This document shows, in pieces, positions 1,996-53,681 of a DNA stretch of 64,000 nt. Location: the NCBI RefSeq assembly GCF_054482525.1, contig NZ_CM137006.1. The stretch is one strand, 5' to 3'. The position numbers were made by a program, and so were the translations under genes. The notes under the pieces were generated by a model. It had not been told where the DNA came from and searched no databases. It worked only from the letters and a program-made list of their open reading frames with translations. Within the stretch, counting starts at the first letter, position 1. Each line of letters starts with the position of its first letter.

Positions 1996-2110
1996 AACCG
2001 ACTCCTGGTGCGGACATTAACTTTATAATCAGTTTGCCAAAGGTAATTAACAGGACAGGGCTTATAATAATAATAGTTAGCTGGCTGTGTATTAATTTGA
2101 TGTAATGCAT

Positions 2111-2139
2111 GATGCAGATGCTGAGAAAGCATCTGCATC
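2111..2139 (-). terminator. Stem-loop downstream of slp (putative terminator)
   Basis: GATGCAGATGCT-gagaa-AGCATCTGCATC perfect 12 bp stem 12 nt after the slp stop; the downstream tract is A/T-rich but not a clean U-run. Confidence 0.4.
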
Positions 2140-2150
2140 TCTCGGTGGTG

Positions 2151-2717: not shown

Positions 2718-2960
2718 GTTACTATCCTTATCAACAAATATTAAAACCATAATAGATATTTCTTTATAGTTTTCATCTGATTCTGAGGCGATATGCCTGA
2801 TAGTAACGTAAACCTGTCTGATGTTTATATCCCTCTGTTTAGTTTAATTCTGTTAATTTTGGGGCGTGACATGAGTATCCATCGCCCCATAAAATAGCCT
2901 TTTTTTAAAGGTACATAAAATCTATTTTATTCAATGATTATAAAGCGCTAATGTTCAATA

Positions 2961-31851: not shown

Positions 31852-34655
<2,804 letters not shown>

Positions 34656-37284: not shown

Positions 37285-37872
37285 TCAGTTAACTGAATCG
37301 ATCCATTGCACACTGTCGGCGGAGAGCGTAAAGGGGGTGGGAGTGCAGATCGCCAGGCTTAAATTATCAAGCTGGCAATGGCTGACCGACAGTGATGACT
37401 GATAGGTGCTGTCTACGCTGACGATTTGCCAGGCGCTGCCGCCACGTTGTTTAACGATGGCTTCTTTGCGTGTCCAGATGCGCCAGAACATTTCCAGTTG
37501 CTGATCAGGATGCACGGCGTCCATCTCAGCGTGTTCCCCGAGGCTGAACACCGCGTTCGCCAGCCAGCGCCAGTTGGCGCGCGGGCGAATCACTTCGATA
37601 TCGCAGCCGACTTCGCCTTCATCGCTCAACAGCAGGGCGATATCGTCACCGCTATGGCTTAAGTTGAACCATAGCGGCGTTTCCGGCGCGAATGCAGGTT
37701 TGCCTTGTTCGCCATAGATGATCTCCGGTAGCGGGGAAAGCGTGTGCGAAAGCAATGCACGCCCCGCCAGCCAGCGTTCGCGTCGTGGACCTTGCGGTGC
37801 TTGATCGCGTAAAGCCGGTGGCAGTGGAGCTGCGCTTAAGGTCGAAACTTTCCCCAGAACTATCCGATACAT
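37285..37872 (-). CDS. acpT: 4'-phosphopantetheinyl transferase AcpT
   Basis: Start refined to MYRIVLGKVSTL, giving 195 aa; PPTase motifs (GEQGKPAF, WTRKEAIVKQ); starts 2 nt after the upstream ketosynthase stop, so it is the last gene of the operon. Confidence 0.85.
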   Translation of the reverse strand: MYRIVLGKVSTLSAAPLPPALRDQAPQGPRRERWLAGRALLSHTLSPLPEIIYGEQGKPAFAPETPLWFNLSHSGDDIALLLSDEGEVGCDIEVIRPRANWRWLANAVFSLGEHAEMDAVHPDQQLEMFWRIWTRKEAIVKQRGGSAWQIVSVDSTYQSSLSVSHCQLDNLSLAICTPTPFTLSADSVQWIDSVN

Positions 37873-37873
37873 A

Positions 37874-39103
37874 TCAGGGCCAACGTTTAATGATGATGGA
37901 TGTATTAATGCCACCAAAGGCAAAGTTGTTACTCTGCAAAAACTCACAATCAACTTTGCGGGCTTCATGCATGATGTAATCCAGCGCGCCACAATTCGGG
38001 TCTGGTTTATTCAGGTTTAGCGTAGGCGCAAACCAACCTTCGCGCATCATTTGCAGACTCATCCAGGCTTCGAGCGCGCCACAGGCACCAAGCGTATGAC
38101 CAAAATAACTTTTCAGCGAGGAGAGCGGCACATTATCACCGTAAATGGTTGCTGTCGCCAGACTTTCTGCCATATCACCGCGATCGGTCGCCGTACCATG
38201 CGCTGAAATATAGCCGATATCTTGTGCGCTTAACCCGGCGATTTTCAGCGATTGCTCCATACAATACTGCATGGTTTCGCGCTGCGGCTGGGTAATATGT
38301 GCCGCGTCGCAGTTAGTCGCAAAGCCGACGATTTCACCGTAAATGGTCGCGCCGCGCGCTTTGGCGTGCTCCAGTTCTTCGAGAATGAGCGTACCTGCGC
38401 CTTCACCAATCACCAGCCCGTCGCGGTTTTCATCGAACGGTGAAGGTGTGGTTTTCGGCGCATCATTGTGCTGGCTGGTGGCGAAAAGCGTATCAAATAC
38501 CGCTGCTTCTGAAGGGCATAACTCTTCGGCACCACCAGCAACCATCACCGTTTGATAACCGTGGCGAATGGCTTCCCACGCATAACCGATTGCCTGGCTG
38601 CCGGAGGTACAGGCGCTGGAGGTTGGAATCACCCGCCCGCGCAGGCCGAAAAAGAGGCCAGTATTAACGGCGGTGGTGTGTGGCATCATCTGCACATAGG
38701 TGGTGCCAGTGATGTTGTTCGTGTGCTTTTCCGTCAGCATGGTGGCGAACTCGCTCACCGGGCCGGTACTGCCGGTCGATGAACCGTACGCAATGCCCGT
38801 TTCGCCGCTGGTTAATATCGGATCGCCAATCAACCCTGCCTGCTCTAATGCCAGCTCTGTCGCACGGGTCGACATTTGCGACACGCGGCCCATCGCACGG
38901 ATACGCTTGCGGGTGTAATGCTCCGGCAGCGTAAAATCATCAACAGGCGCGCCAAGCAGGGTGTGCAGACCATCGTAGACCTGCCACTCCGGCATTTTGC
39001 GCACTGCATTCTCATACGCCAGCAGACGCGCGGAAACGTCCTGCCAGTTTTCACCAAAGGCAGTCACGCCGCCCATTCCTGTAATCACTACGCGACGTGT
39101 CAT
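37874..39103 (-). CDS. apeR: Beta-ketoacyl-ACP synthase (FabB/FabF-like), APE cluster, ApeR position
   Basis: 409 aa; active-site context IPTSSACTSGSQAIG and C-terminal HTLGACG. Confidence 0.8.
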   Translation of the reverse strand: MTRRVVITGMGGVTAFGENWQDVSARLLAYENAVRKMPEWQVYDGLHTLLGAPVDDFTLPEHYTRKRIRAMGRVSQMSTRATELALEQAGLIGDPILTSGETGIAYGSSTGSTGPVSEFATMLTEKHTNNITGTTYVQMMPHTTAVNTGLFFGLRGRVIPTSSACTSGSQAIGYAWEAIRHGYQTVMVAGGAEELCPSEAAVFDTLFATSQHNDAPKTTPSPFDENRDGLVIGEGAGTLILEELEHAKARGATIYGEIVGFATNCDAAHITQPQRETMQYCMEQSLKIAGLSAQDIGYISAHGTATDRGDMAESLATATIYGDNVPLSSLKSYFGHTLGACGALEAWMSLQMMREGWFAPTLNLNKPDPNCGALDYIMHEARKVDCEFLQSNNFAFGGINTSIIIKRWP

Positions 39104-39831
39104 AACATCCCTCCGTTGATGGAAATAACCTGGCGGGTGACGTAACCCGCAATATCAGACATTAAATAGCTGGCAAGCCCGGCAACTTCTTCCGCCTGGC
39201 CCATGCGTTTCATGGGGATCATCGACATTGCCTCTTTCAGAGCGCTCTCTTCCATTTCGATCATCCCGGTATCAATAAGCCCCGGCGCGATGCAGTTGAC
39301 GGTGATTTTGCGCTTCGCGAGTTCGATAGCCAGTGCTTTTGTTGCGCCGATAATTCCGGCTTTGGCAGCGCTGTAGTTCACCTGTCCGCGATTGCCCATC
39401 ACGCCGGAAACCGAGGACAGCGTGATGATTCGTCCACCCTGGCGTGCGCCGATCATCGGCATAATGCACGGCTGAATGACGTTGTAGAAACTGTCGAGGT
39501 TGGTGTGGATCACCGCATCCCAGTCGTCATCGCTTAAAGCCGGAAAAGCGGCATCGCGGGCGATCCCGGCGTTACTAACCACGCCGTACCAGGCACCGTG
39601 TTGCGCGATCTCGTGCTCCAGCACTTCCCGACACTGTTCGCGGTTTGCGACGTCGAAACTGAGCAAACGCCCGTTACCACCGTTAGCGACAATGGCATTC
39701 AGCGTTTCCTGAGCGCCTGCGGCGTCACGGTGATAGTGAACGCCAATGTTAAAACCGTCTGCCGCCAATTGGCAGGCGATGGCGCGACCAATGCCTTTGC
39801 TGGCACCAGTAACCAGAACTGAACGACTCAT
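39100..39831 (-). CDS. apeQ: 3-oxoacyl-ACP reductase (SDR, FabG-like), ApeQ position
   Basis: 243 aa; Rossmann motif TGASKGIGRAIA and catalytic YSAAK. Confidence 0.85.
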   Translation of the reverse strand: MSRSVLVTGASKGIGRAIACQLAADGFNIGVHYHRDAAGAQETLNAIVANGGNGRLLSFDVANREQCREVLEHEIAQHGAWYGVVSNAGIARDAAFPALSDDDWDAVIHTNLDSFYNVIQPCIMPMIGARQGGRIITLSSVSGVMGNRGQVNYSAAKAGIIGATKALAIELAKRKITVNCIAPGLIDTGMIEMEESALKEAMSMIPMKRMGQAEEVAGLASYLMSDIAGYVTRQVISINGGML

Positions 39832-40295
39832 CAGGACGCTCCTTGTTGAAACAGGGTGGTAAGTTCTTCCGCGGTCGGCTGGAAGGTGTTAATGCGGCCC
39901 GTTGCTTCGCCGTCGTTGATACTGCACTCAAAACTGCCGAAGCGATCGTCTTGCATCAGGAGTTTGACGGTAATGGTCAGCGTCTGGCCTGCGGGCAGAA
40001 TGCCAGCGGCGCAAAGCAATTCACGTGCGCCCAGTACCATCCCTAACTCAATACTGTTTTTGCCCTGCTGGTGGCGATGCCAGCCAGACCAGACGCCGAC
40101 GGTTTGCGCCATCAATTCAAGGGCAAACCAGCCAGGGAGATTGCCGTCCGGGTCGAGAAACGGTGCCAGTACGCCACTGGGCGAAACCGTCACGCGGCAC
40201 ACCGCGCTGTCATCGCTGACGCTCACCACGTCTTCCAGCAGTAACATGGGCGCGTCGTGGGGCAGATAAGCGCCGGGGGATAAATAGTGGCTCAC
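39831..40295 (-). CDS. apeP: Hotdog-fold 3-hydroxyacyl-ACP dehydratase (FabA/FabZ-like), ApeP position
   Basis: 154 aa; LPHDAPMLLLEDVV... typical of FabA/FabZ-like dehydratases; overlaps both neighbours. Confidence 0.7.
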   Translation of the reverse strand: MSHYLSPGAYLPHDAPMLLLEDVVSVSDDSAVCRVTVSPSGVLAPFLDPDGNLPGWFALELMAQTVGVWSGWHRHQQGKNSIELGMVLGARELLCAAGILPAGQTLTITVKLLMQDDRFGSFECSINDGEATGRINTFQPTAEELTTLFQQGAS

Positions 40296-41470
40296 GAAAC
40301 CCTCCCGAGCAGAATGCTGGCGTTATTGCCGCCAAAGGCGAAGGAATTGGACAGGATCACCGGACGTGCCAGCGGCTGTGGTTGTTCGATAATGCCGCAC
40401 GGTGGCAGCGTGGGATCGCGCGGCGACAGGCTGAAGTCCTGAGCGAGCAGCGGTAAATCACGCTGTAAAATCAACATGCTGATTGCCGCCTCGGTAATGC
40501 CCGCCGCGCCCAGCGTGTGTCCGGTCAAATGTTTGGTGGAACTGCAAGGTACGCGTTCGCCAAACAGGGCGTTAACCACCATCGATTCAATCTGGTCGTT
40601 GAGTTGTGTGGCGGTACCGTGCAGGTTGATATAGCCGACGTCATCTGGCGTAAGCTGCGCATCGGTCAGCGCCTGGTTAATGGCGCGGATCGCCCCTTCG
40701 CCCTGCGGATGCGGGGCCGAAATATGGTAAGCGTCGCTCGATTCACCAACGCCCAGTAACGCGATGGGCTGCGGTTCACGGGTTAATAACATCAGTCCCG
40801 CCCCTTCGCCAATGGTGATACCTGCGCGGTCACGACCAAACGGCTGACATAAGGTGGGCGAGAGCGATTCGAGGCTGTGAAAACCGTTAATCGGCATCCG
40901 GCTCAGAGTATCTGCGCCACCCACAATGGCGGCATCGACCAGCCCCGCTTCGATAAGCCTGCGCCCGCTGATCATCGCTCTGGCGCTGGAAGAGCAAGCG
41001 GTTGAAAGGGTATAAGCCGGGCCATCGAGCGCCAGCCAGTGGCTGAGAAAGCGCGACGGATCGCCAAGTTCCTGTTGCGCGTAGTGCCATGTGGTGCTCG
41101 GCTGTCCGTTGGTGCGCAGGTTAACGTGCGTGTCGCCCTCATGCAGGCCGGAGGTGCTGGTGCCAAGTACAATCGCGATGCGCTCGTGACCATATTTCGC
41201 GATAGCGTCATCAACCTGCGGCTGGATCTGCGCCAGCGCCGCCAGCAGGATCTGATTGTTGCGCGAGCGGTGCGCAGCGAATTTTTCGGGGATAAGCGGA
41301 AGCTCGCCATCCACGCCAGCCAGGACCGCCTGCGGATGCCCCTGCAACCAGCCTGCGCGCGGACGCATGCCGGGAGCGACACCGCGAGTCAGGTTGGCTG
41401 CGATCTCATCAAGGTTATTTCCCAGGGCGTTGATCATGCCGACGGCGGAAATATAAATCATATCAGTCAC
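40292..41470 (-). CDS. apeO: Beta-ketoacyl-ACP synthase, ApeO position
   Basis: 392 aa; active-site Cys context YTLSTACSSSARAM; HLTGHTLGAAG near the C-terminus. Confidence 0.8.
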   Translation of the reverse strand: MTDMIYISAVGMINALGNNLDEIAANLTRGVAPGMRPRAGWLQGHPQAVLAGVDGELPLIPEKFAAHRSRNNQILLAALAQIQPQVDDAIAKYGHERIAIVLGTSTSGLHEGDTHVNLRTNGQPSTTWHYAQQELGDPSRFLSHWLALDGPAYTLSTACSSSARAMISGRRLIEAGLVDAAIVGGADTLSRMPINGFHSLESLSPTLCQPFGRDRAGITIGEGAGLMLLTREPQPIALLGVGESSDAYHISAPHPQGEGAIRAINQALTDAQLTPDDVGYINLHGTATQLNDQIESMVVNALFGERVPCSSTKHLTGHTLGAAGITEAAISMLILQRDLPLLAQDFSLSPRDPTLPPCGIIEQPQPLARPVILSNSFAFGGNNASILLGRVS

Positions 41471-42047
41471 CTAAGTATTGAATGGTGATGTGGTATTTAA
41501 AGACATGCTGCTCAATGCTGATTGGCACGCGTTTGCCCTTGCGATTCAAATAGGTGATTTCCGTGACCAGCTTGCCGCTGGCGTTACGCAGCTCGCGTTT
41601 GTCACCGTTGTCGCGAAGTGTCCAGCCAGTGGGAAGTTGCGGCTGCCAGGCGCTAATCGGCCAGTGGCTGAGCATCACGTCAGCCAGTACCTGACTTGCG
41701 GGCGGTAACTGTGGGACGACGATCGATTGCTCGGCGCGTAGCCCTTGCGCATCGTAGGTCACCAGAAACAGGCGAATGCCGACCGACGACAGTCCGGCAA
41801 GGGTGATTTTCTGGTCGTCGGCGTTAAGCATCACTAGCAGCGACTGGGTTTTGCCGTTGAAGCTGCCGGTCAACAGTTGCTGGGAATTGACGGCGGGTGA
41901 AATCCCCGGCGCAGGCAGCGTGATGCGCGTGCCAGGTTGCAGCCACGCTTGCGGGCGGCCTTCCTGTTCTGGTTGCGAGTGGCTACAGCCGGTGAGGATA
42001 AGCGTAGCGGTCAGGGCGAACGCTCGCCAGAATGTGGGTTTGATCAT
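41463..42047 (-). CDS. apeN: Lipoprotein (DUF3261-like), ApeN position
   Basis: 194 aa with lipoprotein signal peptide MIKPTFWRAFALTATLILTGC. Confidence 0.65.
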   Translation of the reverse strand: MIKPTFWRAFALTATLILTGCSHSQPEQEGRPQAWLQPGTRITLPAPGISPAVNSQQLLTGSFNGKTQSLLVMLNADDQKITLAGLSSVGIRLFLVTYDAQGLRAEQSIVVPQLPPASQVLADVMLSHWPISAWQPQLPTGWTLRDNGDKRELRNASGKLVTEITYLNRKGKRVPISIEQHVFKYHITIQYLGD

Positions 42048-44362
42048 TTTTTTGTTCTCTTTTTATCGGGCATGGCCAGCGGCGAAAGCAGGAAGGCGGT
42101 GAAAATACCGCTCACCAGCACAATGCCAAAACTGCTGATGGCCTGGGTGGCGCTGAATACCAGCATTCCCAGCGTCAGCAAGGTGGTGAGCATTGCCAGC
42201 GTGATCGCCAGTAGCGAAGTTAATGGTGTGCCGCGCGGATTACTGAAAAACAGCGTGTAGTTGATGCCGATGCCAAGCACCAGTACCAGCGCCAGCAGCG
42301 AAAAGAGATTCACCGCCTGCCCGCTCATCGCCAGCACCGCCAGACCGCAGCCCAGTGAAAGCACCGAAGGCACCAGGCTGATAAACCCTTTGCGCCAGCC
42401 GAGGCGGGCCACTGCGCCGCAGGCAATTACTGCCAGCGCCACCAGCAACAAGCCGGTTAACACATAACGGTAAAGTGCGAACAATTCATCAAAGGTGTTT
42501 TTGCGATCAACCCAGGCAATGCCACAAGGGTAATAGCTGGAGATTTCCTGTAGCGCCGCGCTATTTTTAACCCCTTCAACCGGCACCAGCACGCCGCTTG
42601 CGCCATTTTCCAGCGTCAGCCACAGCAGACGCCAGCCTTCACTGGCGGGGCTTGCCAGCCATTCATCAACCTTCACTGGCATGGCGTTAAGATCCGGGTT
42701 CACCGCCGTCAGCCCGGCATTTTGCAGTGCTTTTGTTACCGTCGGGGCAGCCGTTTTCAGCAGGTCTAAATCTTCCTCCTGCCGCGCCAGGGAGTTCAGC
42801 GGAATGGTGCGGTAGTTGCTGATAAGGCCGTCTTTTTTCGCTTTCTCCAGCGAGGTGGTAAATGTCTCCAGCCGTCCCAAGGTTTGCTGTGACGAATCGC
42901 CGTAAACCACAAACCATTTTTGATCGACGCTTTGTCCGGTCAGGGCGGTGATGGCTTTCTCCTGCGCCAGAATATGCTGCGGTAGCGCCTGTAACTGCGA
43001 GATATCGTCATCGACGCACAGCATTGACATCCCCGCCAGCGAAAACAGCGCCAGCGCGACGGGCAGACCCCGCGACAGTTTTTTATTACGCCGCCACGCT
43101 GCCAGCCAGCGCAGCATCAGCGCCATCGCTGGAACCGGACGCACCGGCAGGCCACGGCACAGCCACGGATGCCAGAACAGGACGGTCAGACAGGAGGCGC
43201 TCAACCCGACGGCGGCAAAAATCGCCATCTGGCGAATGCCGGGGAAGGGGGCGAGCATCATAATCAGATACGCCGCCACGGTGGTGAGCAGCGCCAGCAG
43301 CAGGGCATTGCGCACTTTCGCCAGGCTTTGCCACGGCGAAACGTCATTGCCGTGCACCATCCGCTCGGTGAGGTAATAGAGCGTGTAGTCAGCGGAAATG
43401 CCGATAACGCTCATGCTCATCACCAGCGTCATCAGGTGTAATTCGCCGAAAATCAACAAGGTGGCGACCGTTCCCGCCAGCGCGCCGATGCCGATGGAAA
43501 TCACACACATCAGCAACGGGCGCAAAGAGCGGAACACCGCCACAATCAGCAATATCACCCCCAGCAGCGTTGCCACGCCCAGGGTGGAGATATCCTGCTT
43601 CGCCTGTTGGCTGGCGTAATCGCTGTAAAACACCGTGCCGCGTGAGAGCAACTGAGCCTGCGGGTAACGCGTTTTCAGATCCTTTTCCAGCGTATTCAGG
43701 GTCGTGATGAGCTGGTGGGTTTGCTGCATATCAAACGACGATCCCGCCAGTTCGCCGTGCAGCAGATACCAGTAGTTGCCCTGGGGATCCTGCGTCACCA
43801 GCCAGCCGTCCATCAGCCGCAAACGCTGGCCGTTTTTCGCCATCGCCAGCTGCGAGCCACGCATTAACATCAGCGGATCGTTTTGCAGCTCCTTACCGCT
43901 TACCCCGGAGAACGCAGAATAAAGCTGGGAGAGGATCCACTGCGCCTGCGCTTCGCCGCCGTTTTGCAGGCGCGCGCGGGTGTCGGGGTCAATCAGACCG
44001 TTGCGATGCTGCCAGAAAAACGCTCCCCACGCCTGCTGGCTGGCGGCATCCATTGGCCCTTTAACGTCGCCGAGCGCAGCGGATTTTTGCAGCAGCGTCA
44101 GCCACTCCTGAGCGACCCTGGGATTAGCCTCTTTACCGGGGCTGACCAGCCACACCAGTTGGCGGTCCAGACGCTGCATAAAGCCGTCATTCAGCGCTGG
44201 GGGAATATCGCCCATCGCCTGTTTGGGTAACATAGCCAGTACGCTACTGTTCAGTCGTGATTGCGGCAACAGGATCAGCAACGCCGCCGCCATGACCAGG
44301 CAGACGATCCCCCATAACAGCGCCGGGCGTTTACTGGGCGGCAAAACGTTGGCGTTCGTCAT
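42044..44362 (-). CDS. apeM: MMPL/RND-superfamily membrane exporter, ApeM position
   Basis: 772 aa with two blocks of TM helices separated by soluble domains. Confidence 0.75.
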   Translation of the reverse strand: MTNANVLPPSKRPALLWGIVCLVMAAALLILLPQSRLNSSVLAMLPKQAMGDIPPALNDGFMQRLDRQLVWLVSPGKEANPRVAQEWLTLLQKSAALGDVKGPMDAASQQAWGAFFWQHRNGLIDPDTRARLQNGGEAQAQWILSQLYSAFSGVSGKELQNDPLMLMRGSQLAMAKNGQRLRLMDGWLVTQDPQGNYWYLLHGELAGSSFDMQQTHQLITTLNTLEKDLKTRYPQAQLLSRGTVFYSDYASQQAKQDISTLGVATLLGVILLIVAVFRSLRPLLMCVISIGIGALAGTVATLLIFGELHLMTLVMSMSVIGISADYTLYYLTERMVHGNDVSPWQSLAKVRNALLLALLTTVAAYLIMMLAPFPGIRQMAIFAAVGLSASCLTVLFWHPWLCRGLPVRPVPAMALMLRWLAAWRRNKKLSRGLPVALALFSLAGMSMLCVDDDISQLQALPQHILAQEKAITALTGQSVDQKWFVVYGDSSQQTLGRLETFTTSLEKAKKDGLISNYRTIPLNSLARQEEDLDLLKTAAPTVTKALQNAGLTAVNPDLNAMPVKVDEWLASPASEGWRLLWLTLENGASGVLVPVEGVKNSAALQEISSYYPCGIAWVDRKNTFDELFALYRYVLTGLLLVALAVIACGAVARLGWRKGFISLVPSVLSLGCGLAVLAMSGQAVNLFSLLALVLVLGIGINYTLFFSNPRGTPLTSLLAITLAMLTTLLTLGMLVFSATQAISSFGIVLVSGIFTAFLLSPLAMPDKKRTKK

Positions 44363-44936
44363 CGGTCAGTTGCGCTGGCGTCAGTTGATGTTGGGTAAGA
44401 GCGATATCGGTGCGATCGCCCTGTTTATCATTAAGCTGAATGCTCTCCAGATAGGTTTGCCCGGCGAGATCGATGGTGTTGAAAATTTTATCCAGCGGCG
44501 TGGTGGTCGGCGTCAGGCGCAGTGTCCAGCGGCCTTCGCCTTTGTCAGCAAATTCGACGCGGAAGTTTTGTTCCAGCACTTTGCGATCGGCCTGGAACAG
44601 CGCGCGCAGCAGGTGGTTAAACTGGAACATCTGCGGGTTATTTTCTGCCGTGATAATTTGCGGCGGCTGACCGTTGATCACCTGCACCATGCGTTTATCG
44701 TCCAGCAATAGTTGCATGGGGAACGGTGAGGTTTGATCCCACAACAGCCCCTGGTCGCGGGCGATCAACATCTGGCCCTGAGATCGTAGCGGCTGCGGCA
44801 GATCTTTAATCGTCCGGGTTTGATCGAAATGGGCGCGGATCACTGGCTGTTCGGTAAAGCGTTGCTGAAGATCGTCCAGGTTCAGGGCGCTCACAAACGG
44901 GCTAATCAGCAGCGCCAGCAGCGGTAAAAATTTCAT
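44331..44936 (-). CDS. apeL: LolA-like outer-membrane lipoprotein carrier protein, ApeL position
   Basis: 201 aa with signal peptide MKFLPLLALLISPFVSALNLDDL; ATGA overlap with the upstream gene. Confidence 0.65.
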   Translation of the reverse strand: MKFLPLLALLISPFVSALNLDDLQQRFTEQPVIRAHFDQTRTIKDLPQPLRSQGQMLIARDQGLLWDQTSPFPMQLLLDDKRMVQVINGQPPQIITAENNPQMFQFNHLLRALFQADRKVLEQNFRVEFADKGEGRWTLRLTPTTTPLDKIFNTIDLAGQTYLESIQLNDKQGDRTDIALTQHQLTPAQLTDDERQRFAAQ

Positions 44937-45355
44937 GGTTTGACTCCCATGCGTTCAAACAGAATATCGGGGCTGACAAAGCACAGTTCGCGGCTTTGCT
45001 CGTCGACCGCGACCTGAATGGTGTATCCGGTGGTGGCGCGTTTTCCCGTTTCGGCATCGAAAATCTGATAGCCAATCCGCAGACGGTTTTCGAACTCTTC
45101 GATATGCGCACGCACGCGGATGCGTTGCTCAAAGGTGAGGGCGTGGCGATATTTCACCCTCGCATCGACCACTGGCCACAAATAACCGGACTCTTTCATC
45201 TGCCGATAGCCGTAATTGAACTGGTTGAGCAGCGCCTCGCGGGCCACTTCAAAGTAGCGAAAATAGTTACCGTGCCAGGCCACGCCCATCATATCGACGT
45301 CGTGAAAGGGAATGGTCAGCTCGACTTCAGCGGTAAATCGGGGATCGTTAAGCAC
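44933..45355 (-). CDS. apeK: Hotdog-fold acyl thioesterase (4HBT family), ApeK position
   Basis: 140 aa; N-terminal ...IPFHDVDMMGVAWHGNYFRYFEVAREALL typical of 4HBT/YbgC-type thioesterases. Confidence 0.7.
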   Translation of the reverse strand: MLNDPRFTAEVELTIPFHDVDMMGVAWHGNYFRYFEVAREALLNQFNYGYRQMKESGYLWPVVDARVKYRHALTFEQRIRVRAHIEEFENRLRIGYQIFDAETGKRATTGYTIQVAVDEQSRELCFVSPDILFERMGVKP

Positions 45356-45358
45356 CCT

Positions 45359-47035
45359 TTACTCCTTGTCCTGGACTTCCGGCAGTTGCCAGAAATCGAA
45401 AAAATTAAACCAGTCGAGGGGGGACTGGAGCGCGTAATATTCCAGACGCGCGGCGTAATGATCGATAGCGTTTTGCAGCGCCTGCTGGCGTTCGCCACGC
45501 GGCAACAGCAGCGGGTCGGCAAAGGTTTCGCAGTGAATATGCAGCTTGCCGTGCTGGCGCAGCGCGAAAATCAGATTCACCGGGCAGCGCAAAATAGACG
45601 CAAGAATAAACGGCCCCTGCGGGAAGGGCGCAGGCTGGCCCATAAACGGACTCCAGCAGACTCGCCAGTCGCCGCCGCGTTGCGGGTTGACGGCGATGCG
45701 GTCACCGACAATCGCCACCCATTCGCCGTTATCCAGCTTCTCTTTGAGCAGGATGGCGGTTTCTGGGCCGATATCCGTCACCGGGAGCAGGTTGATGCCT
45801 GCCTGCGGGGCCATCTCCTGCATTATCTGTTTAAAGCGTTGGGCGTTTTCGCTAAACACCAGCGCGTTAATGGTTTTGTAGCCCTGAATTTTTGCCAGCG
45901 CCCGGCACACTTCCACATCGCCAAGATGCGAGGCCAGCAGCAATTTGCCGCGCGGATCGCTGACGTTAAGTGCCGCTTCTGCGCCTGGTGCAAACAGCAC
46001 ATCACGCCCGAGTTGCAGCTCGCCGCGCCAGCTGGCGATTTTGTCGAGCATGGCGTTGCCGAAACGTAGAAAGTGCTGATAGCTGTTGATTTTTGCTGCC
46101 AGTGGTTGTTGTTGGCGCACACGGGCGAGCCAGGCTTGCGACGCTTTACGCGCACGAGCAGCGGTGAGCCAGTAGACGCCCACCACCGGGTAAAGCAGCG
46201 CGGTAAACGCAGTTCTTCCCAGCAGACGCCAGACCAGCAGCATCAGGCGCATTCCCCATAATCCTTTCACTTCGCTCTGCCGCGCCCAGTGGCTGGAAGA
46301 GCTGCGCATCAGCAGTGAAGGAATACGCGGCAACATGCCGAAAAACAGACGTGTGTGCATGAGCGAGATGCGGACGTTATCTTTCAGGGCATCAAAATGC
46401 GAAAGCCCGTCCAGTGGATAGGTGACGCGGGTCGGCACGAAATAGCTGGTGTTTCCCTGCCAGTAGAGGCGCACCATCACTTCAGTGTCGAAATCCATCC
46501 GCTTGCCGATGGTGGCGTATTTTGCCAGTTGCAGCGTTGGCGCAACCGGATAAACGCGAAAGCCGCACATGCTGTCTTTCAGTTGCAGGGAGAGCGTTTC
46601 GATCCATACCCAGACGTGGGTGACCCAGCGCCCGTACAGCCGTGAGCGGGGGATGGAGTCATCGTAAATCGGCTGGCCGGAGATCAGCGCCGCAGGCTGC
46701 TGTTCAGCGAGTGCCAGCAGTTTAGGGATGTCTTCAATCGCGTGCTGACCGTCAGCATCCACCTGTACCGCATGGCTGAAGCCCGCGTCTGCCGCCGCCT
46801 GTAAGCCGCGCATTACCGCCGCGCCTTTGCCTGCGTTTTCTGCCAGGCGAATTAAGGTCACGCCAGGCTGTTCGGCAACCAGATTATCCAGTTGCTGTTG
46901 CGTGGCGGCATCGCTGCCGTCATCCACCACAATACAGGGCAGATTAAATGGCTTAAGACGCGCCAGCACGCCCGGCATCATCGCACCGTGGTTGTAGCAG
47001 GGGATCAACACACAGGGAGAAAAGTTTACCGACAT
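45359..47035 (-). CDS. apeJ: Bifunctional glycosyltransferase family 2 / lipid A-type acyltransferase-like protein, ApeJ position
   Basis: 558 aa; N-terminal GT2 motifs (CIVVDDGSD, VQVDADGQH) and a C-terminal acyltransferase-like domain. Confidence 0.7.
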   Translation of the reverse strand: MSVNFSPCVLIPCYNHGAMMPGVLARLKPFNLPCIVVDDGSDAATQQQLDNLVAEQPGVTLIRLAENAGKGAAVMRGLQAAADAGFSHAVQVDADGQHAIEDIPKLLALAEQQPAALISGQPIYDDSIPRSRLYGRWVTHVWVWIETLSLQLKDSMCGFRVYPVAPTLQLAKYATIGKRMDFDTEVMVRLYWQGNTSYFVPTRVTYPLDGLSHFDALKDNVRISLMHTRLFFGMLPRIPSLLMRSSSSHWARQSEVKGLWGMRLMLLVWRLLGRTAFTALLYPVVGVYWLTAARARKASQAWLARVRQQQPLAAKINSYQHFLRFGNAMLDKIASWRGELQLGRDVLFAPGAEAALNVSDPRGKLLLASHLGDVEVCRALAKIQGYKTINALVFSENAQRFKQIMQEMAPQAGINLLPVTDIGPETAILLKEKLDNGEWVAIVGDRIAVNPQRGGDWRVCWSPFMGQPAPFPQGPFILASILRCPVNLIFALRQHGKLHIHCETFADPLLLPRGERQQALQNAIDHYAARLEYYALQSPLDWFNFFDFWQLPEVQDKE

Positions 47036-47379
47036 AGGCGGATCTTCCCGCTACTGGCGGTGTGGCGGGCGTCACCGTCGTGACGCTGATAGCTAAAGCT
47101 CAGAATCTGGCGTTCTTCCTGCCAGTTAAGCGTGAGCGTGACGCGGTTTTCCGGCAGCAACGGGGACTGGAATTTGATGTTCTGAATAGAGTGAAAACGC
47201 CAGCCAGGCGCGAGCAGGGCAAGCGCGTAGCTCATCGCCCAGTCGATTTGTGCAACTCCTGGAAGTAACGGCTGCACGGCAAAATGACCGCGAAACCAGA
47301 ACAGATCCGCCCTGAGATGCAGAACAATTTCAAGGTGATTCGCTTGTGCCTGATGGCGCTCGATTTCATGGGGCTTCAT
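47026..47379 (-). CDS. apeI: Hotdog-fold dehydratase (FabZ-like), ApeI position
   Basis: Start refined to MKPHEIERH (AGGAG RBS 8 nt upstream); contains FRGHFAVQPLLPGV. Confidence 0.7.
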   Translation of the reverse strand: MKPHEIERHQAQANHLEIVLHLRADLFWFRGHFAVQPLLPGVAQIDWAMSYALALLAPGWRFHSIQNIKFQSPLLPENRVTLTLNWQEERQILSFSYQRHDGDARHTASSGKIRLCR

Positions 47380-48727
47380 GAAATAACTCCTGTAATTGCG
47401 CATAGACACGCTTGTTCATACTGTTTACTGGCATTTCATCAATAACGCGCCAGTAACGCGGAATAGCAACTGGCTCCAGGGTCGGGCGCAGTAATCGCCG
47501 CCAGGTCATTTCCTGGCTATGCCCGCCGCCGTTCTGCCATTGCAGATGAGCTTCGTCATCCAGCACCAGCAAAACGCCGATGCTCTGACGCCCGCCGCGC
47601 GTAACGGGAACTGCCGCCGCCTCGCGAATGCCGTCCAGCGCCAGCAGACGTTGTTCTACTTCCTGGAGTGAAATACGTTTTTCTTCAATCTTAACGATGC
47701 GCCCACGACGCCCCATCAGATGGAACTGACCGTCCTGGCTAAACTGCAAGAGATCGTCGAGCAACAGGCCGTTATCTTCCGCTATCAGCGGTGAAAAGAG
47801 GCGAAATGCTTCACCTTCGACCTGGAAGTGCATACCTGGAAAGGGCCGCCAGCGGCGTTGCTCTTGTTCGCGGTAACGCCAGGCAATGACGCCGGTTTCC
47901 GTGCTGCCGAAGATTTCATCAGGCCAGACGCGCAGCCAGCTCTCGGTATATTGTACGTCCTGCCACGGCAGCTCACCGCCAGCAGAGAGAAGCACCTGAA
48001 CAGGCGGCGGGGATAGCTGAGCATCCAGACGCTTCAAAAATGCCGGGCTGCTGATGAAGATATAGCGATGCTGGTGACTCAATGCGGCAAACTGTTCGAC
48101 ATACCAGAGCATGGCGGCGTGCAGCGGTAATCCCAGCGCCATTGGCAGGAAAACGCGAAAAGTCAGGCCGTACAAATGCTGCGGCAAAACGGAACCGACG
48201 ACACGACATCCGGCAAGACGTGCGCCTAATCGTTCAGCCAGCAGTTCTGCTTCACGGTCCAGCAAATGAACAGGCTTAATTACCCGCTTTGGCTGCCCCG
48301 TAGAACCGGAGGTAAACAGCTCGATATAAGCGTCTGGCGCTATAGCGGCAAAGGTGAATGATTGTGTCGCGACTTGTGGGGAACTTGCTACCAACAGCAA
48401 TGAACCTTGCCAGTTAAGTTCGCTGTCGCTAAGTACACCATCGAACAGTTCACGTTGCTCATTAAGCTGGATGACACGGTTATGCCCCGGAAGCACCGGC
48501 GTTTTTCCGGCGTGTAGCGTGGCGAGCAGGGCAACGATAAATAGATAGCTGTTCTCAAAGCACAGCGCCCAGCGTTCACCCGGCTGTTGCTGCAAGCGGC
48601 AGATAAGTTGCGCGACATCGTGACGCAAATCGCCCAGTGTCCACGAGCTTTCGTCCAGCCACGCAATGGGCGTGTCATCAGGGCGTGGCGCAGTCAGCCA
48701 GCGTGCAAGCGGTAAGGTCTGCTTCAT
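47366..48727 (-). CDS. apeH: AMP-dependent synthetase/ligase (acyl/aryl-CoA or acyl-ACP ligase), ApeH position
   Basis: AMP-binding signature LFTSGSTGQPKRV; start refined to MKQTLPLARWL, giving an ATGA overlap with the upstream gene. Confidence 0.8.
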   Translation of the reverse strand: MKQTLPLARWLTAPRPDDTPIAWLDESSWTLGDLRHDVAQLICRLQQQPGERWALCFENSYLFIVALLATLHAGKTPVLPGHNRVIQLNEQRELFDGVLSDSELNWQGSLLLVASSPQVATQSFTFAAIAPDAYIELFTSGSTGQPKRVIKPVHLLDREAELLAERLGARLAGCRVVGSVLPQHLYGLTFRVFLPMALGLPLHAAMLWYVEQFAALSHQHRYIFISSPAFLKRLDAQLSPPPVQVLLSAGGELPWQDVQYTESWLRVWPDEIFGSTETGVIAWRYREQEQRRWRPFPGMHFQVEGEAFRLFSPLIAEDNGLLLDDLLQFSQDGQFHLMGRRGRIVKIEEKRISLQEVEQRLLALDGIREAAAVPVTRGGRQSIGVLLVLDDEAHLQWQNGGGHSQEMTWRRLLRPTLEPVAIPRYWRVIDEMPVNSMNKRVYAQLQELFHEAP

Positions 48728-49305
48728 GAGCGATCTCTTTTTATCACCTGACGGCGCACCAGCCATTCACCTGCCATTAACGTTCCCATCAACAAATAAG
48801 CAATCATGCCGTTCCAGGCGGTCCATAACGACATATCGCCATAAAGCGCGGTAAAGAGGGCAATTCCGCCGTTAATGATGAAAAAGCCGCACCAGATTTG
48901 CGTGACACGGCGGGTATAGCGCACGCCCTTTTCCGGGAGGTCTGGCTCCTGCAAACGTGCCAGCCGCTCAACTATCGGCATTGTCGACCACAGCGAACCG
49001 CCAAAAACCGCCAGCATGATCGCGTTAACCACTACCGGGTAAAACAGCAGTAGCTGGTGCGTTTTCAACAGAAAGCTGGCGACACACAATGCGATGCCCA
49101 CGACAGCGACGATTTGTGTGACGGCTTGTAGCGGCCCCGCCCGGCGACGGGTCTGGCGCAGGCGCAACAAAAGCAGCAACGCTATTAGCGGCAACAACCA
49201 GTGCAGGCCGTTATGCGCCAGGCCAAACCAAATCACAAACGGCCAGGCGAGCAGCAATAATCCAGTCAGCAGCTTAATCATCGGTAGCGAGCGAATGCCC
49301 GACAT
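48724..49305 (-). CDS. apeG: Small integral membrane protein, ApeG position
   Basis: 193 aa with about five hydrophobic helices. Confidence 0.6.
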   Translation of the reverse strand: MSGIRSLPMIKLLTGLLLLAWPFVIWFGLAHNGLHWLLPLIALLLLLRLRQTRRRAGPLQAVTQIVAVVGIALCVASFLLKTHQLLLFYPVVVNAIMLAVFGGSLWSTMPIVERLARLQEPDLPEKGVRYTRRVTQIWCGFFIINGGIALFTALYGDMSLWTAWNGMIAYLLMGTLMAGEWLVRRQVIKRDRS

Positions 49306-49309
49306 CAGA

Positions 49310-49561
49310 TCAGGCTTCTTGTAGCAGGCGTTCTACAGCCTCTACGACATCCTGAACTGTGCGCACTGCTTTAAACTCTTCCGGCTTGATTTTCTTACCG
49401 GTTTTCTTTTGCAGGTGCACAATCATGTCAACGGCGTCGATGCTGTCCAGTTCCAGATCTTCGTACAGGCGCGCTTCAGGTTTGATGTCCTGCGGATCGA
49501 TTTCAAACAGCTTAACCAGCAGGGCTGAGACTTCCTGATAGACGGTTTGTTGTTCTGTCAT
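49310..49561 (-). CDS. apeF: Acyl carrier protein, ApeF position
   Basis: 83 aa; phosphopantetheine-attachment context LELDSIDAVDM. Confidence 0.85.
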   Translation of the reverse strand: MTEQQTVYQEVSALLVKLFEIDPQDIKPEARLYEDLELDSIDAVDMIVHLQKKTGKKIKPEEFKAVRTVQDVVEAVERLLQEA

Positions 49562-49572
49562 GATGGCTTTCC

Positions 49573-49830
49573 TCAGGCACGTTGCGCAGCAATGAAAGAG
49601 GCCAGAGTGGCGACGGAGAAAAAGTGCTGACGCATCTCTTCACTTTCCGCAGAAAGTACAACGCCATATTGATTTTTCACTGCCAGCCCCAGTTCCAGGG
49701 CATCGATGGAATCCAGTCCTAAACCGTCGCCGAACAGCGGCGCATCGGTCTCGATATCATCAGGAGTCAACTCGTCCAGATTGAGGGTACTGATGATGAG
49801 GTTTTTAATTTCCAGATAAAGCGCTTGCAT
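49573..49830 (-). CDS. apeE: Acyl carrier protein, ApeE position
   Basis: 85 aa; attachment context LGLDSIDALEL. Confidence 0.85.
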   Translation of the reverse strand: MQALYLEIKNLIISTLNLDELTPDDIETDAPLFGDGLGLDSIDALELGLAVKNQYGVVLSAESEEMRQHFFSVATLASFIAAQRA

Positions 49831-50626
49831 TATTTATTCCTGAGAGAGGTAAACAACCTTGTTGTAATTGAAGCAAAAGATGCCGGTTTAACTGCCTTGC
49901 TGCCAGCGCCGGTTCTTGTGAAGTTGCATCGTAAAATTTATTGATTTCAACCCGACCATGGACTTCAACCGTAAAAAACGGCCGGTCAGGTGGAACGTCA
50001 TACCATTTACTTTGTTTATCCAGCAGATGCTCGCTACAGCCGATCGTCACGATGCGTAAATCGCTGGCACAGCGCACGGCAATATTCGCCGCCCCGCGCT
50101 GCAGCGTCATTTTTTCACCGGGCTTCGTTCGCGTGCCTTCGGGGAAAATCAGGATAGTGTCACCCTGTGCCAGTCGCTGTTGGCAGCGGGGTAACAGGGT
50201 TTCAGCTTCGCTGTTGATTAAATAATCTGCCGCCCGCACGACGCCGCCAAGAAAAGGATTTTTTAACAGCGCGCTTTTCACCAGGCAGTCAGTTTCTGGC
50301 ATGACTGACGCCAGCAGCACGTAATCGATCAGCGTGGGATGATTGGCTACGACGAGGCAACCGCGTTCCTGACGTAAAATTTCAGCGCCATCAATACGAT
50401 AATCCAGCACGCCAAGCCCTTTCGCGACAGTTAAAAACAGGCGAAAACTGGCGGCAATGCTGCGACGCGCCAAACGACGGCGGCGGGAAGTATCCCACAC
50501 CAAAACTAACAATATGTTAAACCACACGACAGAAAGCAGCAGGCCGCCGAGACCAAACAGGGCAAAACATAACCCGGTCATGACCAGTCGCCAGGTCCAC
50601 TCCAGACGTGACATCAGCTTACTCAT
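49805..50626 (-). CDS. apeD: Lysophospholipid/1-acylglycerol-3-phosphate-type acyltransferase, ApeD position
   Basis: HX4D motif NHPTLID and N-terminal TM helices; start refined to MSKLMSRLEW (ATGA overlap). Confidence 0.75.
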   Translation of the reverse strand: MSKLMSRLEWTWRLVMTGLCFALFGLGGLLLSVVWFNILLVLVWDTSRRRRLARRSIAASFRLFLTVAKGLGVLDYRIDGAEILRQERGCLVVANHPTLIDYVLLASVMPETDCLVKSALLKNPFLGGVVRAADYLINSEAETLLPRCQQRLAQGDTILIFPEGTRTKPGEKMTLQRGAANIAVRCASDLRIVTIGCSEHLLDKQSKWYDVPPDRPFFTVEVHGRVEINKFYDATSQEPALAARQLNRHLLLQLQQGCLPLSGINNASALSGN

Positions 50627-51345
50627 CTGCGGCTCCAGCGCCATTGCACGCGCTCGCCAGGCAGTGAAAATGCGTCTGCATTTTGTAAATAGTGCTGTAA
50701 AAACAACATGCTTTGCGGCAGTGATGTTTCATTGCCCGCAATGGCTGACTGCGTTTCACATTGCCAGTCATCGCCAGCTTCAATCACCAGCGCGACGGCG
50801 TACGGCCAGGTCGGCATTTCTGATGGCAGTTGTGGGTGATAAAACTCAGGCAGAAAGCCATCAAAATCGACCATCAGCACGCGCTGGTATCCCGCTTGTA
50901 ACAGGCTAAGCACTTCACACAAACCTTGCTGGAAAGTGTCGCGACCAGCAGAAAGCGATGACGAAACGATCGGCTGTTTGGCCGCAATGGTCAGGTTACC
51001 CACGGAAGAGTTGTGTACGGAGAGCGCGAAGTCGGTCGGAGAAAGCGCCTGTTCAGTTGCCAGTGCATGAACAATGCGGTAATTGCGCTCCAGTTCGCCA
51101 TGACGACTGGTATACAAAACGGCGTCTGGCTGATGGCGGCGTAGCATTGCCAGACCGCATTCAACAGCCAGTTTGCTGCCTGAACTAAGGCGGCGGGCGG
51201 TCATCATTGGCAGTTCACTTAATTTTGCCAACGGCGCGGCAGGGTCAATCGCCCACGGCTGGCGCGACCATGCTTGCCATTGCTGCGCTTCGCTAAGTCC
51301 AGGCGCCAGTGCCTGCCAGTCGGTAATATTTAATGTAAATTTCAT
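50623..51345 (-). CDS. apeC: Truncated ketosynthase-like protein without a canonical active-site Cys (chain-length-factor-like), ApeC position
   Basis: About 240 aa, with SVHNSSVGNL where a KS would carry its catalytic Cys; start refined to MKFTLNI (the track start is a TTG). Confidence 0.6.
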   Translation of the reverse strand: MKFTLNITDWQALAPGLSEAQQWQAWSRQPWAIDPAAPLAKLSELPMMTARRLSSGSKLAVECGLAMLRRHQPDAVLYTSRHGELERNYRIVHALATEQALSPTDFALSVHNSSVGNLTIAAKQPIVSSSLSAGRDTFQQGLCEVLSLLQAGYQRVLMVDFDGFLPEFYHPQLPSEMPTWPYAVALVIEAGDDWQCETQSAIAGNETSLPQSMLFLQHYLQNADAFSLPGERVQWRWSRR

Positions 51346-51385
51346 CAACGCGCGCCCGCGGTAAACCAAAATTATTAAGTGACGA

Positions 51386-52453
51386 TTATTTCTTTTGGCA
51401 TATCAAAAGTGTATGCCCAACGCCTAAATTATCGTGGCGCTCTGCTACCTGGAATCCTGCTTTATTCAGATAGTCGTAAAATTTCTCTGCACTATAGAAA
51501 CGGCTGTTACCGTTTGCCATGCAGGTAAAATAAAGTGAGGACGCGTTCAGGCTAAATGATGCTGCTTCAAACCGCTGCGCATCCCAGAACAACTCCATGA
51601 TGCAAACTTTTGCGCCAGGCTTCATTACGCTGGCGATTTTGCTGAGTATGCTAATTATTTGTTCGGGTGAAAAACAGTCTAAAAATTGGCTCATCCACCA
51701 GATATCAGCCTCGCCCGGTAATGGGGCATCGCTTAGCATATCCACCGCATGGAAATCTATGCGATCAGAAAAACCTGCATTCGCGATATTTTCTTTCGCT
51801 AGTACGATTTGTTGTGGCAGATCTAATAACGTCACGGCGATGTTTTCATTGTATTTGCAGCAACGCAAAGCCCACTTACCCGTATTGCCGCCTACATCGT
51901 ACAATGTTGTGGGGTTGTTGGCGAATACATAAGGCAGTGCGGCGTTAAATGCGCCATCTGAATAGTAATGATCAAACGCAAACCAGCTTTCACGAGCGGC
52001 GTCTGGTAATTGTGAAAGTGCCGGATATATCGTCGGCCAGTCGCCAAATACTTTTAACCCGGACGGTTTTCCTTCATTGAGTGAATCGGCGAGGAAGAAG
52101 AGCCCCTGGTAACAGACATCCTGGGTGAAATCCATATTCACGCGAGTCATAGTGTCATGCAGGAGGTAATGACCGATTTTCGCCAGGTAATACATTCCCT
52201 CTTTACAGGTAATAATTCGCCCGCTTAAGCCCATATCTAACAGAACGCTGGCCGCATATTCGTTGATATGGCTATGTTCGGTGATATCAGCCAGCGTTGC
52301 GCCATGTTTGCCTTGCCGATCCAGATATGAAAGTACACCCGCATTACGTAGGCAGAGTGCTGTTTGAAAAAGCATAGGGGCAAAGGCAATGCGTTGAGCT
52401 TCGGTAATCGCATCCAGTGCGCTAAGAGAATCCTGTTCGTACATGTTGGGCAC
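51386..52453 (-). CDS. apeB: SAM-dependent O-methyltransferase, ApeB position
   Basis: 355 aa; methyltransferase fold with YDVGGNTGKWA-type SAM-binding glycine motif; track start is a GTG, first ATG three codons later. Confidence 0.75.
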   Translation of the reverse strand: MPNMYEQDSLSALDAITEAQRIAFAPMLFQTALCLRNAGVLSYLDRQGKHGATLADITEHSHINEYAASVLLDMGLSGRIITCKEGMYYLAKIGHYLLHDTMTRVNMDFTQDVCYQGLFFLADSLNEGKPSGLKVFGDWPTIYPALSQLPDAARESWFAFDHYYSDGAFNAALPYVFANNPTTLYDVGGNTGKWALRCCKYNENIAVTLLDLPQQIVLAKENIANAGFSDRIDFHAVDMLSDAPLPGEADIWWMSQFLDCFSPEQIISILSKIASVMKPGAKVCIMELFWDAQRFEAASFSLNASSLYFTCMANGNSRFYSAEKFYDYLNKAGFQVAERHDNLGVGHTLLICQKK

Positions 52454-52512
52454 AACCTGTTAAGAGGGAATTAAATTATTATCGGACCGCAGCGGCCCGA
52501 CTTTAGGAAGAA

Positions 52513-52890
52513 TTATAAATCTGCGCCCGCTGACAAATTCAGTTGAATATCTTTGTCGAGATTGCGGACCCAGCGATTGTAGTTTTTATGAATTTGTCCG
52601 CCTGACGCTTGTAGGTTCTGGCTATTTTCATAATTGATATCGTAGCTGGATGCCGTGTAGTTAATGCGAATTTCGGCTGAATGATCGCGTGACTGTTGAC
52701 GTGCTTTAATTACGCCTTGTCCGGCTTCGGACATAATCCATTTGCGTTCAACGCCAGCTTTCAGAATCGCTTTTTTCACTTGTTCCTGGGTATGACCAGC
52801 GCTGACGGTTGAGTGAACCTGATCAATTGGCGCAGTACGCGCGCAACCCGCTAAAGCACCCACAACAGCAATAGCCGCAAACCATTTCAT
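52513..52890 (-). CDS. Small lipoprotein, first gene of the operon
   Basis: MKWFAAIAVVGALAGCART (lipobox LAGC), 125 aa; the track ORF start at 52902 gives a 4-residue extension; IS1 lies 14 bp upstream. Confidence 0.6.
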   Translation of the reverse strand: MKWFAAIAVVGALAGCARTAPIDQVHSTVSAGHTQEQVKKAILKAGVERKWIMSEAGQGVIKARQQSRDHSAEIRINYTASSYDINYENSQNLQASGGQIHKNYNRWVRNLDKDIQLNLSAGADL

Positions 52891-52895
52891 GTAAT

Positions 52896-52904
52896 GTCTC
52901 ATTA
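52896..52904. repeat. IS1 target-site duplication, left copy
   Basis: GTCTCATTA directly abutting the IS1 end; identical copy at 53673-53681. Confidence 0.9.
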
Positions 52905-52919
52905 GGTAATGACTCCAAC

Positions 52920-53423
52920 TTATTGATAGTGTTTTATGTTCAGATAATGCCCGATGACTTTGTCATGCAGCTCCACCGATTTTGAAAACGACAGCGACTT
53001 CCGTCCCAGCCGTGCCAGGTGCTGCCTCAGATTCAGGTTATGCCGCTCAATTCGCTGCGTATATCGCTTGCTGATTACGTGCAGCTTTCCCTTCAGGCGG
53101 GATTCATACAGCGGCCAGCCATCCGTCATCCATATCACCACGTCAAAGGGTGACAGCAGGCTCATAAGACGCCCCAGCGTCGCCATAGTGCGTTCACCGA
53201 ATACGTGCGCAACAACCGTCTTCCGGAGCCTGTCATACGCGTAAAACAGCCAGCGCTGGCGCGATTTAGCCCCGACGTATCCCCACTGTTCGTCCATTTC
53301 CGCGCAGACGATGACGTCACTGCCCGGCTGTATGCGCGAGGTTACCGACTGCGGCCTGAGTTTTTTAAGTGACGTAAAATCGTGTTGAGGCCAACGCCCA
53401 TAATGCGGGCGGTTGCCCGGCAT
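52920..53423 (-). CDS. insB: IS1 transposase InsB (expressed as InsAB' by -1 frameshift)
   Basis: 167 aa ORF within IS1, in the -1 frame relative to insA. Confidence 0.9.
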
Positions 53424-53617
53424 CCAACGCCATTCATGGCCATATCAATGATTTTCTGGTGCGTACCGGGTTGAGAAGCGGTGTAAGTGAACTGCAGTTG
53501 CCATGTTTTACGGCAGTGAGAGCAGAGATAGCGCTGATGTCCGGCGGTGCTTTTGCCGTTACGCACCACTCCGTCAGTAGCTGAACAGGAGGGACAGCTG
53601 ATAGAAACAGAAGCCAC
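53342..53617 (-). CDS. insA: IS1 protein InsA
   Basis: 91 aa starting [40 protein letters not shown] (zinc-finger-like). Confidence 0.9.
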
Positions 53618-53672
53618 TGGAGCACCTCAAAAACACCATCATACACTAAATCAGTAAGTTGGCAGCATCACC

Positions 53673-53681
53673 GTCTCATTA
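53673..53681. repeat. IS1 target-site duplication, right copy
   Basis: GTCTCATTA, identical to 52896-52904. Confidence 0.9.

Follow-up and report, generated by a model that had tools for sequence, protein, structure and literature searches.

ApeC of the Escherichia coli aryl polyene cluster, a natively short chain-length-factor protein and probable non-catalytic partner of the ketosynthase ApeO

The window analyzed here is a 64,000-nucleotide stretch of contig NZ_CM137006.1 (assembly GCF_054482525.1). It carries an aryl polyene (APE) cluster of 18 genes, which adjoins acpT and nikA-D (Table 1). Positions 33400 to 64000 of the window are about 99.99% identical to the annotated E. coli PCN033, except for one IS1 insertion, with 99.995% identity at the APE locus, and both the PCN033 annotation and the gene table of strain CFT073 identify the locus as the E. 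coli aryl polyene cluster. The polyene context proposed in the initial annotation of this DNA is thus correct. The open reading frames (ORFs) together with the PCN033 annotation give ApeO, ApeR, the tandem acyl carrier proteins (ACPs), ApeH, ApeQ, ApeP/I and the export genes for ApeM/L/N. Each gene is an intact ORF, and the strain apparently carries a complete APE island. The APE cluster is without a dedicated phosphopantetheinyl transferase, and in O157:H7 the homologues of ApeE/F are activated by AcpT (PMC8253772). In this strain acpT is thus retained beside the genes of its likely substrates.

Table 1. Coordinates of the cluster, its genes, the sequence elements of apeC and the insertion element in the window.
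Feature	Position	Strand	Description and basis
Aryl polyene cluster, apeR-apeA	37874-52890	minus	18 genes; ORFs, PCN033 identity, CFT073 c1186-c1204 table
acpT	37285-37872	minus	Orphan phosphopantetheinyl transferase; directly downstream of apeR
apeR	37874-39103	minus	Second ketosynthase, FabB/F-like homodimeric; 4ewg_A E 2.6e-164, 7f27_A E 6.4e-158
apeO	40292-41470	minus	Catalytic ketosynthase; 6qsp_A E 7.9e-173, PCN033 annotation; RefSeq start 41461
apeF	49310-49561	minus	Acyl carrier protein, tandem with apeE; ORF, annotation, PMC8253772 Table 1
apeE	49573-49830	minus	Acyl carrier protein, tandem with apeF; ORF, annotation, PMC8253772 Table 1
apeD	49805-50626	minus	Lysophospholipid acyltransferase; sequence, PCN033 annotation
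apeC	50623-51345	minus	240 aa; ORF, PF13723, RefSeq name, 6qsp_B alignment, AF2 model
S132-A133-G134-R135 turn	50941-50952	minus	Predicted pseudo-active site; DSSP, Cys column mapping; no Cys, no Gln
SVHNSSVGNL	50992-51021	minus	Residues 109-118; part of the signature S-P-x-x-F-x-x-S-V-H-N-x-x-x-G
R51-R52 invariant pair	51190-51195	minus	112/112 sequences; alignment to 7f28_A
IS1 element	52906-53672		768 bp; InsB ORF 52920-53423 and InsA ORF 53342-53617, both minus

The apeC ORF is real and intact. Two starts are possible in the ORF list, TTG at 51369 or ATG at 51345, and the stop ends at 50623. The ATG gives a protein of 240 aa with the N-terminus MKFTLNITDW. It is the RefSeq start in the 100%-identical stretch of E. 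coli PCN033 (WP_001366678.1), where the product is named 'beta-ketoacyl synthase chain length factor', and it also matches residue 1 of 6qsp_B in the alignment to the PDB. The product matches PF13723 (Ketoacyl-synt_2) with E = 2.9e-67 (226.9 bits; curated cut-off 25) and covers positions 1-223 of the 223 in the profile. The same Pfam scan gave no match to PF00109 (at E <= 1) or PF02801, and the NCBIfam scan of the product gave no match. The best match in the PDB is 6qsp_B, the ApeC of Xenorhabdus doucetiae (E = 7.8e-93, residues 1-239 of 239), and the second is 7f28_A, the ApeC of Acinetobacter baumannii (E = 1.2e-14). According to PMC8358021, ApeC was crystallized in 6QSP and 7F28 together with ApeO, as its chain-length-factor (CLF) partner. 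In CFT073 apeC is c1202 and is likewise called the CLF partner of ApeO (PMC8253772). The stretch around apeC is carried by 824 of the 5,426 complete E. coli genomes, in nearly all of them with at least 95% identity.

We identify the ORF as E. coli apeC, orthologous to the Xenorhabdus and Acinetobacter ApeC, and its product belongs to the ApeC/PF13723 family by every testable criterion. This orthology, the 6QSP and 7F28 structures and the RefSeq name support the earlier description of the protein as chain-length-factor-like. We note that the literature already describes ApeC together with its structure, partner and role, and that standard annotation already names the gene correctly.

The ketosynthase (KS) at 40292-41470, proposed at the outset as the partner of this protein, is the orthologue of ApeO. 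It keeps the Cys of TACSSS and the motifs HGTAT and GHTLGAAG. The initial annotation had also placed the ORF next to the full KS genes; they belong to the same cluster, but they are not adjacent. The gene of a classical CLF lies directly downstream of its KS gene and is often translationally coupled to it, whereas apeC is about 9 kb away from apeO, a distance that is also noted in PMC8253772, and is joined to apeD instead. The ATG of apeD overlaps the stop of apeC (ATGA), which suggests translational coupling of these two genes. Both this overlap with the acyltransferase gene and the gene order PF13723 gene, acyltransferase, ACP, ACP are retained in relatives that are only 27-30% identical.

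When 1.8 billion representatives of 50%-identity clusters were searched exhaustively with HMMER, 2,119 relatives were obtained at E <= 1e-3, and the full-length PF13723 relatives in this search are typically 235-260 aa long. The gene was at first taken for a truncated KS gene. It is indeed short (240 aa against about 400), but it is not truncated: since the whole PF13723 profile is covered and the relatives are of like size, about 240 aa is the native architecture of the ApeC family. Lee et al. (PMC8358021) report that ApeC has kept the first thiolase domain and, from the second, no more than a few strands.

For the analysis of conservation an alignment of 112 diverse members was used, which are 27-52% identical to E. 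coli ApeC. Seven columns are invariant (R51, R52, S102, P103, F106, V110, and N112), and eight are conserved in at least 90% of the members (S80, S109, H111, G116, I120, E144, L157, and P166). E. coli ApeC has the conserved residue in all of these columns. In the alignment to 7f28_A its R51 and R52 correspond to Arg30 and Arg31 of the A. baumannii protein (AbApeC), conserved surface residues that were suggested to bind the acidic ACP (PMC8358021). The segment with this Arg pair is placed by hhalign opposite the Arg/Lys-rich FabF stretch SRKEQRKM. The signature S-P-x-x-F-x-x-S-V-H-N-x-x-x-G (residues 102-116; 50998-51042, minus strand) is invariant or nearly so in the 112 relatives, down to 27% identity.

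An AlphaFold model of ApeC from the single sequence is unusable (pLDDT 38), and the AF2 model from the 112-sequence alignment has pLDDT of 96.7 and pTM of 0.93. The top match of the latter in a Foldseek search of the PDB is 6qsp_B, with TM of 0.95, rmsd of 1.4 Å and about 59% identity. The next matches are, in this order, 7f28_A, the ishigamide CLF 6kxf_B (E = 1.7e-08), FabFs, and the actinorhodin CLF 1tqy_B (E = 5e-07). With these matches to CLFs and FabF the predicted model confirms the thiolase/KS fold of ApeC, and a protein unrelated to the thiolase fold, the outcome that would have spoken against the chain-length-factor reading, does not apply.

The KS-like character of the sequence, as first described, is real, but it is visible solely to profiles and structure, namely to PF13723, Foldseek and hhalign. 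Pairwise BLASTP of ApeC against ApeO gives nothing significant (best E = 0.2). When the ApeC family is compared by hhalign with a single KS, either ApeO or ApeR, the probability is below 1%; the alignment to ApeO is meaningless and that to ApeR is merely suggestive. Against an alignment of six KS sequences (E. coli FabF, ApeO, ApeR, and three PDB homologues), hhalign gives E = 4e-4 over 149 columns.

ApeC has no catalytic Cys, in line with the first description of the gene. A conserved Cys was not found in the 112 relatives: no column of the family alignment has more than 16% Cys, and the cysteines of ApeC itself (residues 63, 143, and 196) are all in variable hydrophobic columns. The same description had SVHNSSVGNL at the place of the Cys-containing active site, and this assignment has to be given up. 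By the profile alignments and the secondary structure of the model, the motif precedes the site equivalent to the Cys by about 22 residues.

The register is defined as follows. hhalign places ApeC SPTDFALSVHNSSVGNLTI over a 19-residue FabF stretch, and in the gap-free core of the alignment ApeC SPTDFALSVHNSSVGNLTIAAKQPIVSSSLSAGRDTF lies over 37 FabF residues, with the FabF Cys on R135. Against ApeR alone the same region is aligned with a 3-residue gap and the Cys is on S132. In the PDB profile search the same ApeC stretch is aligned with 9s5h_C (412 aa, deposited as 3-oxoacyl-ACP synthase; E = 0.37). A KS HMM was also aligned to each member of the ApeC family, and the Cys column is covered in 57 of them. 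In 47 of the 57 this column comes 20-22 residues after the N of SVHN, in 43 it is at exactly +22 (G134), and in none is it on the SVHN motif. The residue found at the column is G in 35/57, A in 9/57, Q in 1/57, and Cys in 1/57.

In the model, DSSP gives a strand at 127-131, a two-residue turn, a 17-residue helix at 134-150 and a strand at 155-162. This strand-turn-long helix-strand arrangement is the nucleophile-elbow unit of the KSs, with the elbow at S132-R135, where the family consensus is A/S-A-G-x. SVHN is in coil between the short helices 103-107 and 113-122 of the model. From the hhalign registers, the votes of the KS HMM and the modeled secondary structure we thus place the predicted pseudo-active site at the S132-A133-G134-R135 turn, not at SVHN. 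The signature at residues 102-116 is aligned with a 15-residue FabF stretch; its homologous counterpart in the KSs is the helix that precedes the catalytic Cys by about 22 residues. A register with SVHNSS over STACSS was also considered and is rejected: it appears only in BLASTP at E of 23-98, it calls for a beta-strand in a region that is helix and coil in the model, and it occurs in 0 of the 57 HMM alignments.

We suggest that ApeC is very probably the non-catalytic subunit of an ApeO-ApeC KS heterodimer, where it stands in for the second protomer and shapes the ApeO cavity. Its identity, its fold, the absence of the catalytic Cys, the orthology of the partner and the conserved gene context are established above. 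Heterodimer formation, shaping of the cavity and ACP docking by the E. coli protein would follow the example of the orthologues, as known from 6QSP, 7F28 and reconstitution in vitro. The ApeO-ApeC orthologues form a heterodimer with pseudo-twofold symmetry, in which ApeC is one thiolase fold without a cavity of its own and both subunits contribute residues to the wall of the one cavity present (PMC8358021). On its own ApeO-ApeC elongates the polyene fully (PMC8358021), whereas ApeR yields short species and a higher throughput. The Kd of ApeO-ApeC for ACP1 is 74 nM.

The mechanism we propose begins with a protein that retains essentially just the first thiolase half of a KS. In FabF-type KSs the catalytic histidines are in the C-terminal half. 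Since ApeC has no nucleophilic Cys and the C-terminal half is missing, it presumably cannot condense, and the Cys of ApeO would perform all condensations. ApeC would stand where a KS dimer has its second protomer, and would there close and shape the single ApeO cavity at the pseudo-twofold interface. The cavity shaped in this way would let the 4-hydroxybenzoyl-primed chain reach its full 6-7 double bonds. Through the invariant Arg51-Arg52 pair ApeC probably also helps to dock the ACP (ApeE/ApeF). ApeH loads the 4-hydroxybenzoyl starter (PMC8253772), so decarboxylative priming of the CLF type would be unneeded, in agreement with the almost complete lack of Gln at the Cys column.

In the available text of the literature no experiment on the E. 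coli ApeC protein itself was found. For CFT073, the available text of PMC8253772 reports that most deletions of core biosynthetic genes are non-pigmented and names apeA, apeD, apeF, apeJ, and apeK as the exceptions, with apeC unlisted. An ApeC point mutant that alters the length of the product was not found in the literature consulted either. 'Chain length control' by ApeC thus rests on the geometry of the cavity and on the analogy to the classical CLFs.

This leaves some weight to another view, which we nevertheless hold to be unlikely: ApeC could be mainly a structural chaperone or dimerization surrogate for ApeO, and perhaps a recruiter of the ACP, while the product length is set by ApeO and by the rigidity of the polyene. 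Such a role would suit a subunit that has no cavity of its own, whose strictly invariant residues include two surface arginines associated with binding of the ACP, and for which length-altering mutants are missing from the literature consulted. The authors of the structural study also ascribe release and termination to the restricted conformations open to a rigid polyene inside the cavity (PMC8358021). However, both subunits contribute to the wall of this cavity, and at its end stands Glu142 of AbApeC (PMC8358021), and a review states that the length of the ApeO-ApeC product is set by the depth of the pocket (PMC9006962). The scaffold view and the chain-length view overlap and are not mutually exclusive, and a scaffold with ACP docking is only a partial rival of the cavity-shaping subunit proposed here.

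It could also be asked whether ApeC is itself catalytic, through another nucleophile or through His111/Asn112, acting perhaps as a decarboxylase in the manner of the classical CLF/KSQ proteins that contain Gln. H111 is nearly invariant and N112 invariant in a supposedly inert subunit, and classical CLFs of type II PKS systems decarboxylate malonyl-ACP. We reject this reading on conservation and architecture and consider it very improbable, because the elbow is A/S-A-G with just one Gln and one Cys among the 57 aligned members, and the starter arrives as 4-hydroxybenzoyl-ACP from ApeH, so that no decarboxylative priming is needed. Moreover, the second thiolase half, the site of the FabF-type catalytic His, is almost lost and ApeC has no cavity (PMC8358021). 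That the ORF is a decayed, truncated and functionless KS pseudogene, as its length of about 240 aa against about 400 for a KS and its missing catalytic residues might make one think, is practically out of the question and is ruled out by conservation, with relatives of typically 235-260 aa in 2,119 clusters at 50% identity, seven invariant and eight nearly invariant columns, full Pfam coverage, the gene present at nearly always at least 95% identity in 824 complete E. coli genomes, a very confident and compact model, and an orthologue that is a stable crystallized subunit.

As a probable non-catalytic partner of ApeO, ApeC of E. coli is closest to the crystallized orthologues. The proteins of X. 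doucetiae (6QSP_B) and A. baumannii (7F28_A) are like it in PF13723 membership, length, partner ApeO and apeA-R architecture, and the invariant RR pair and SPxxFxxSVHN are common to all. Xenorhabdus ApeC, with about 59% identity in the Foldseek alignment, shows species-level divergence only, and AbApeC is without the first ~20 residues that the E. coli and Xenorhabdus proteins keep (PMC8358021). The APE cluster of CFT073 (c1202 = apeC) is from the same species and has the gene order given in Table 1 of PMC8253772; it differs from the window, where IS1 lies immediately upstream of apeA.

The classical type II CLFs (1TQY_B of actinorhodin, 6KXF_B of ishigamide, that is Iga12, and AntE) are, like ApeC, KS-derived and without the catalytic Cys. 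They replace one protomer of the KS dimer and contribute to a single pocket at the interface, as ApeC is proposed to do. Unlike them, ApeC is half-size, with one thiolase half and 240 aa instead of 360-400, and the target-normalized TM of its model to CLF/KS structures is 0.38-0.46 (Foldseek). Its sequence family (PF13723) is a different one, and its elbow is A/S-A-G (S-A-G-R in E. coli) instead of having the Gln of the aromatic CLFs. FabF and FabB have an N-terminal thiolase half homologous to ApeC (hhalign, E = 4e-4) and share with it the SP...N...G.LTI helix and the strand-turn-helix-strand core. The ApeC chain ends within the first thiolase half plus a few extra strands. In contrast to FabF and FabB, it has no Cys-His-His triad, an almost absent C-terminal half and no cavity, and would act in a heterodimer and not in a homodimer.

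A separate observation concerns PDB entry 9s5h. Its chains B and C are a pair of ~412-aa proteins, deposited recently under the name '3-oxoacyl-ACP synthase'. Chain B resembles ApeO (E = 1e-45), and 9s5h_C is the sole non-ApeC chain of the PDB that is matched by the ApeC family profile (E = 0.37). In the aligned stretch 9s5h_C has ISNG where a KS would have the Cys motif. The B/C pair is possibly another KS-CLF pair.

Aryl polyenes are yellow membrane pigments that protect Gram-negative pathogens from oxidative stress and promote biofilms, and their biosynthetic gene clusters make up a family that ranks among the most widespread in bacteria (PMC8253772). In the aryl polyene pathway, elongation is the task of the ApeO-ApeC core. 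For its smaller subunit two corrections are gained here: the pseudo-active site is assigned to the A/S-A-G turn and not to SVHN, and the short length is native to the family.

What is puzzling is that SPxxFxxSVHN is invariant although ApeC is non-catalytic. No function for this segment was found in the literature consulted beyond a mention of the surface-conserved Thr83, which is T104 in E. coli. In FabB and FabF dimers residues near the helix upstream of the Cys, such as Met138 of FabB, are reported to line the acyl pocket. Should the His111/Asn112 segment extend into the pocket of ApeO or the entry for the ACP, it may serve to place either the phosphopantetheine arm or the 4-hydroxyphenyl head group. 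SPxxFxxSVHN would then give ApeC an active, sequence-specific role in trans. The joint reading that SPxxFxxSVHN is more than scaffold and that IS1 rewires the expression of the pigment cluster seems improbable to us.

The IS1 element is flanked by a 9-bp target-site duplication, GTCTCATTA, at 52897-52905 and 53673-53681. It lies upstream of apeA, at 3 bp from the first in-frame ATG and 15 bp from the RefSeq start of this gene, and it separates apeA, the first gene of the cluster, from the presumed promoter region beside yhhT. The insertion at apeA is absent from PCN033, and the arrangement is found in only 4 of the 5,426 complete E. coli genomes. In this strain IS1 before apeA could silence or re-drive the whole pigment cluster.

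Elsewhere in the window, two stretches, at 2001-4000 and 22001-26000, have a markedly low G+C content of 0.34-0.38 against ~0.52-0.58 in the remainder, which suggests that they are horizontally acquired islands.
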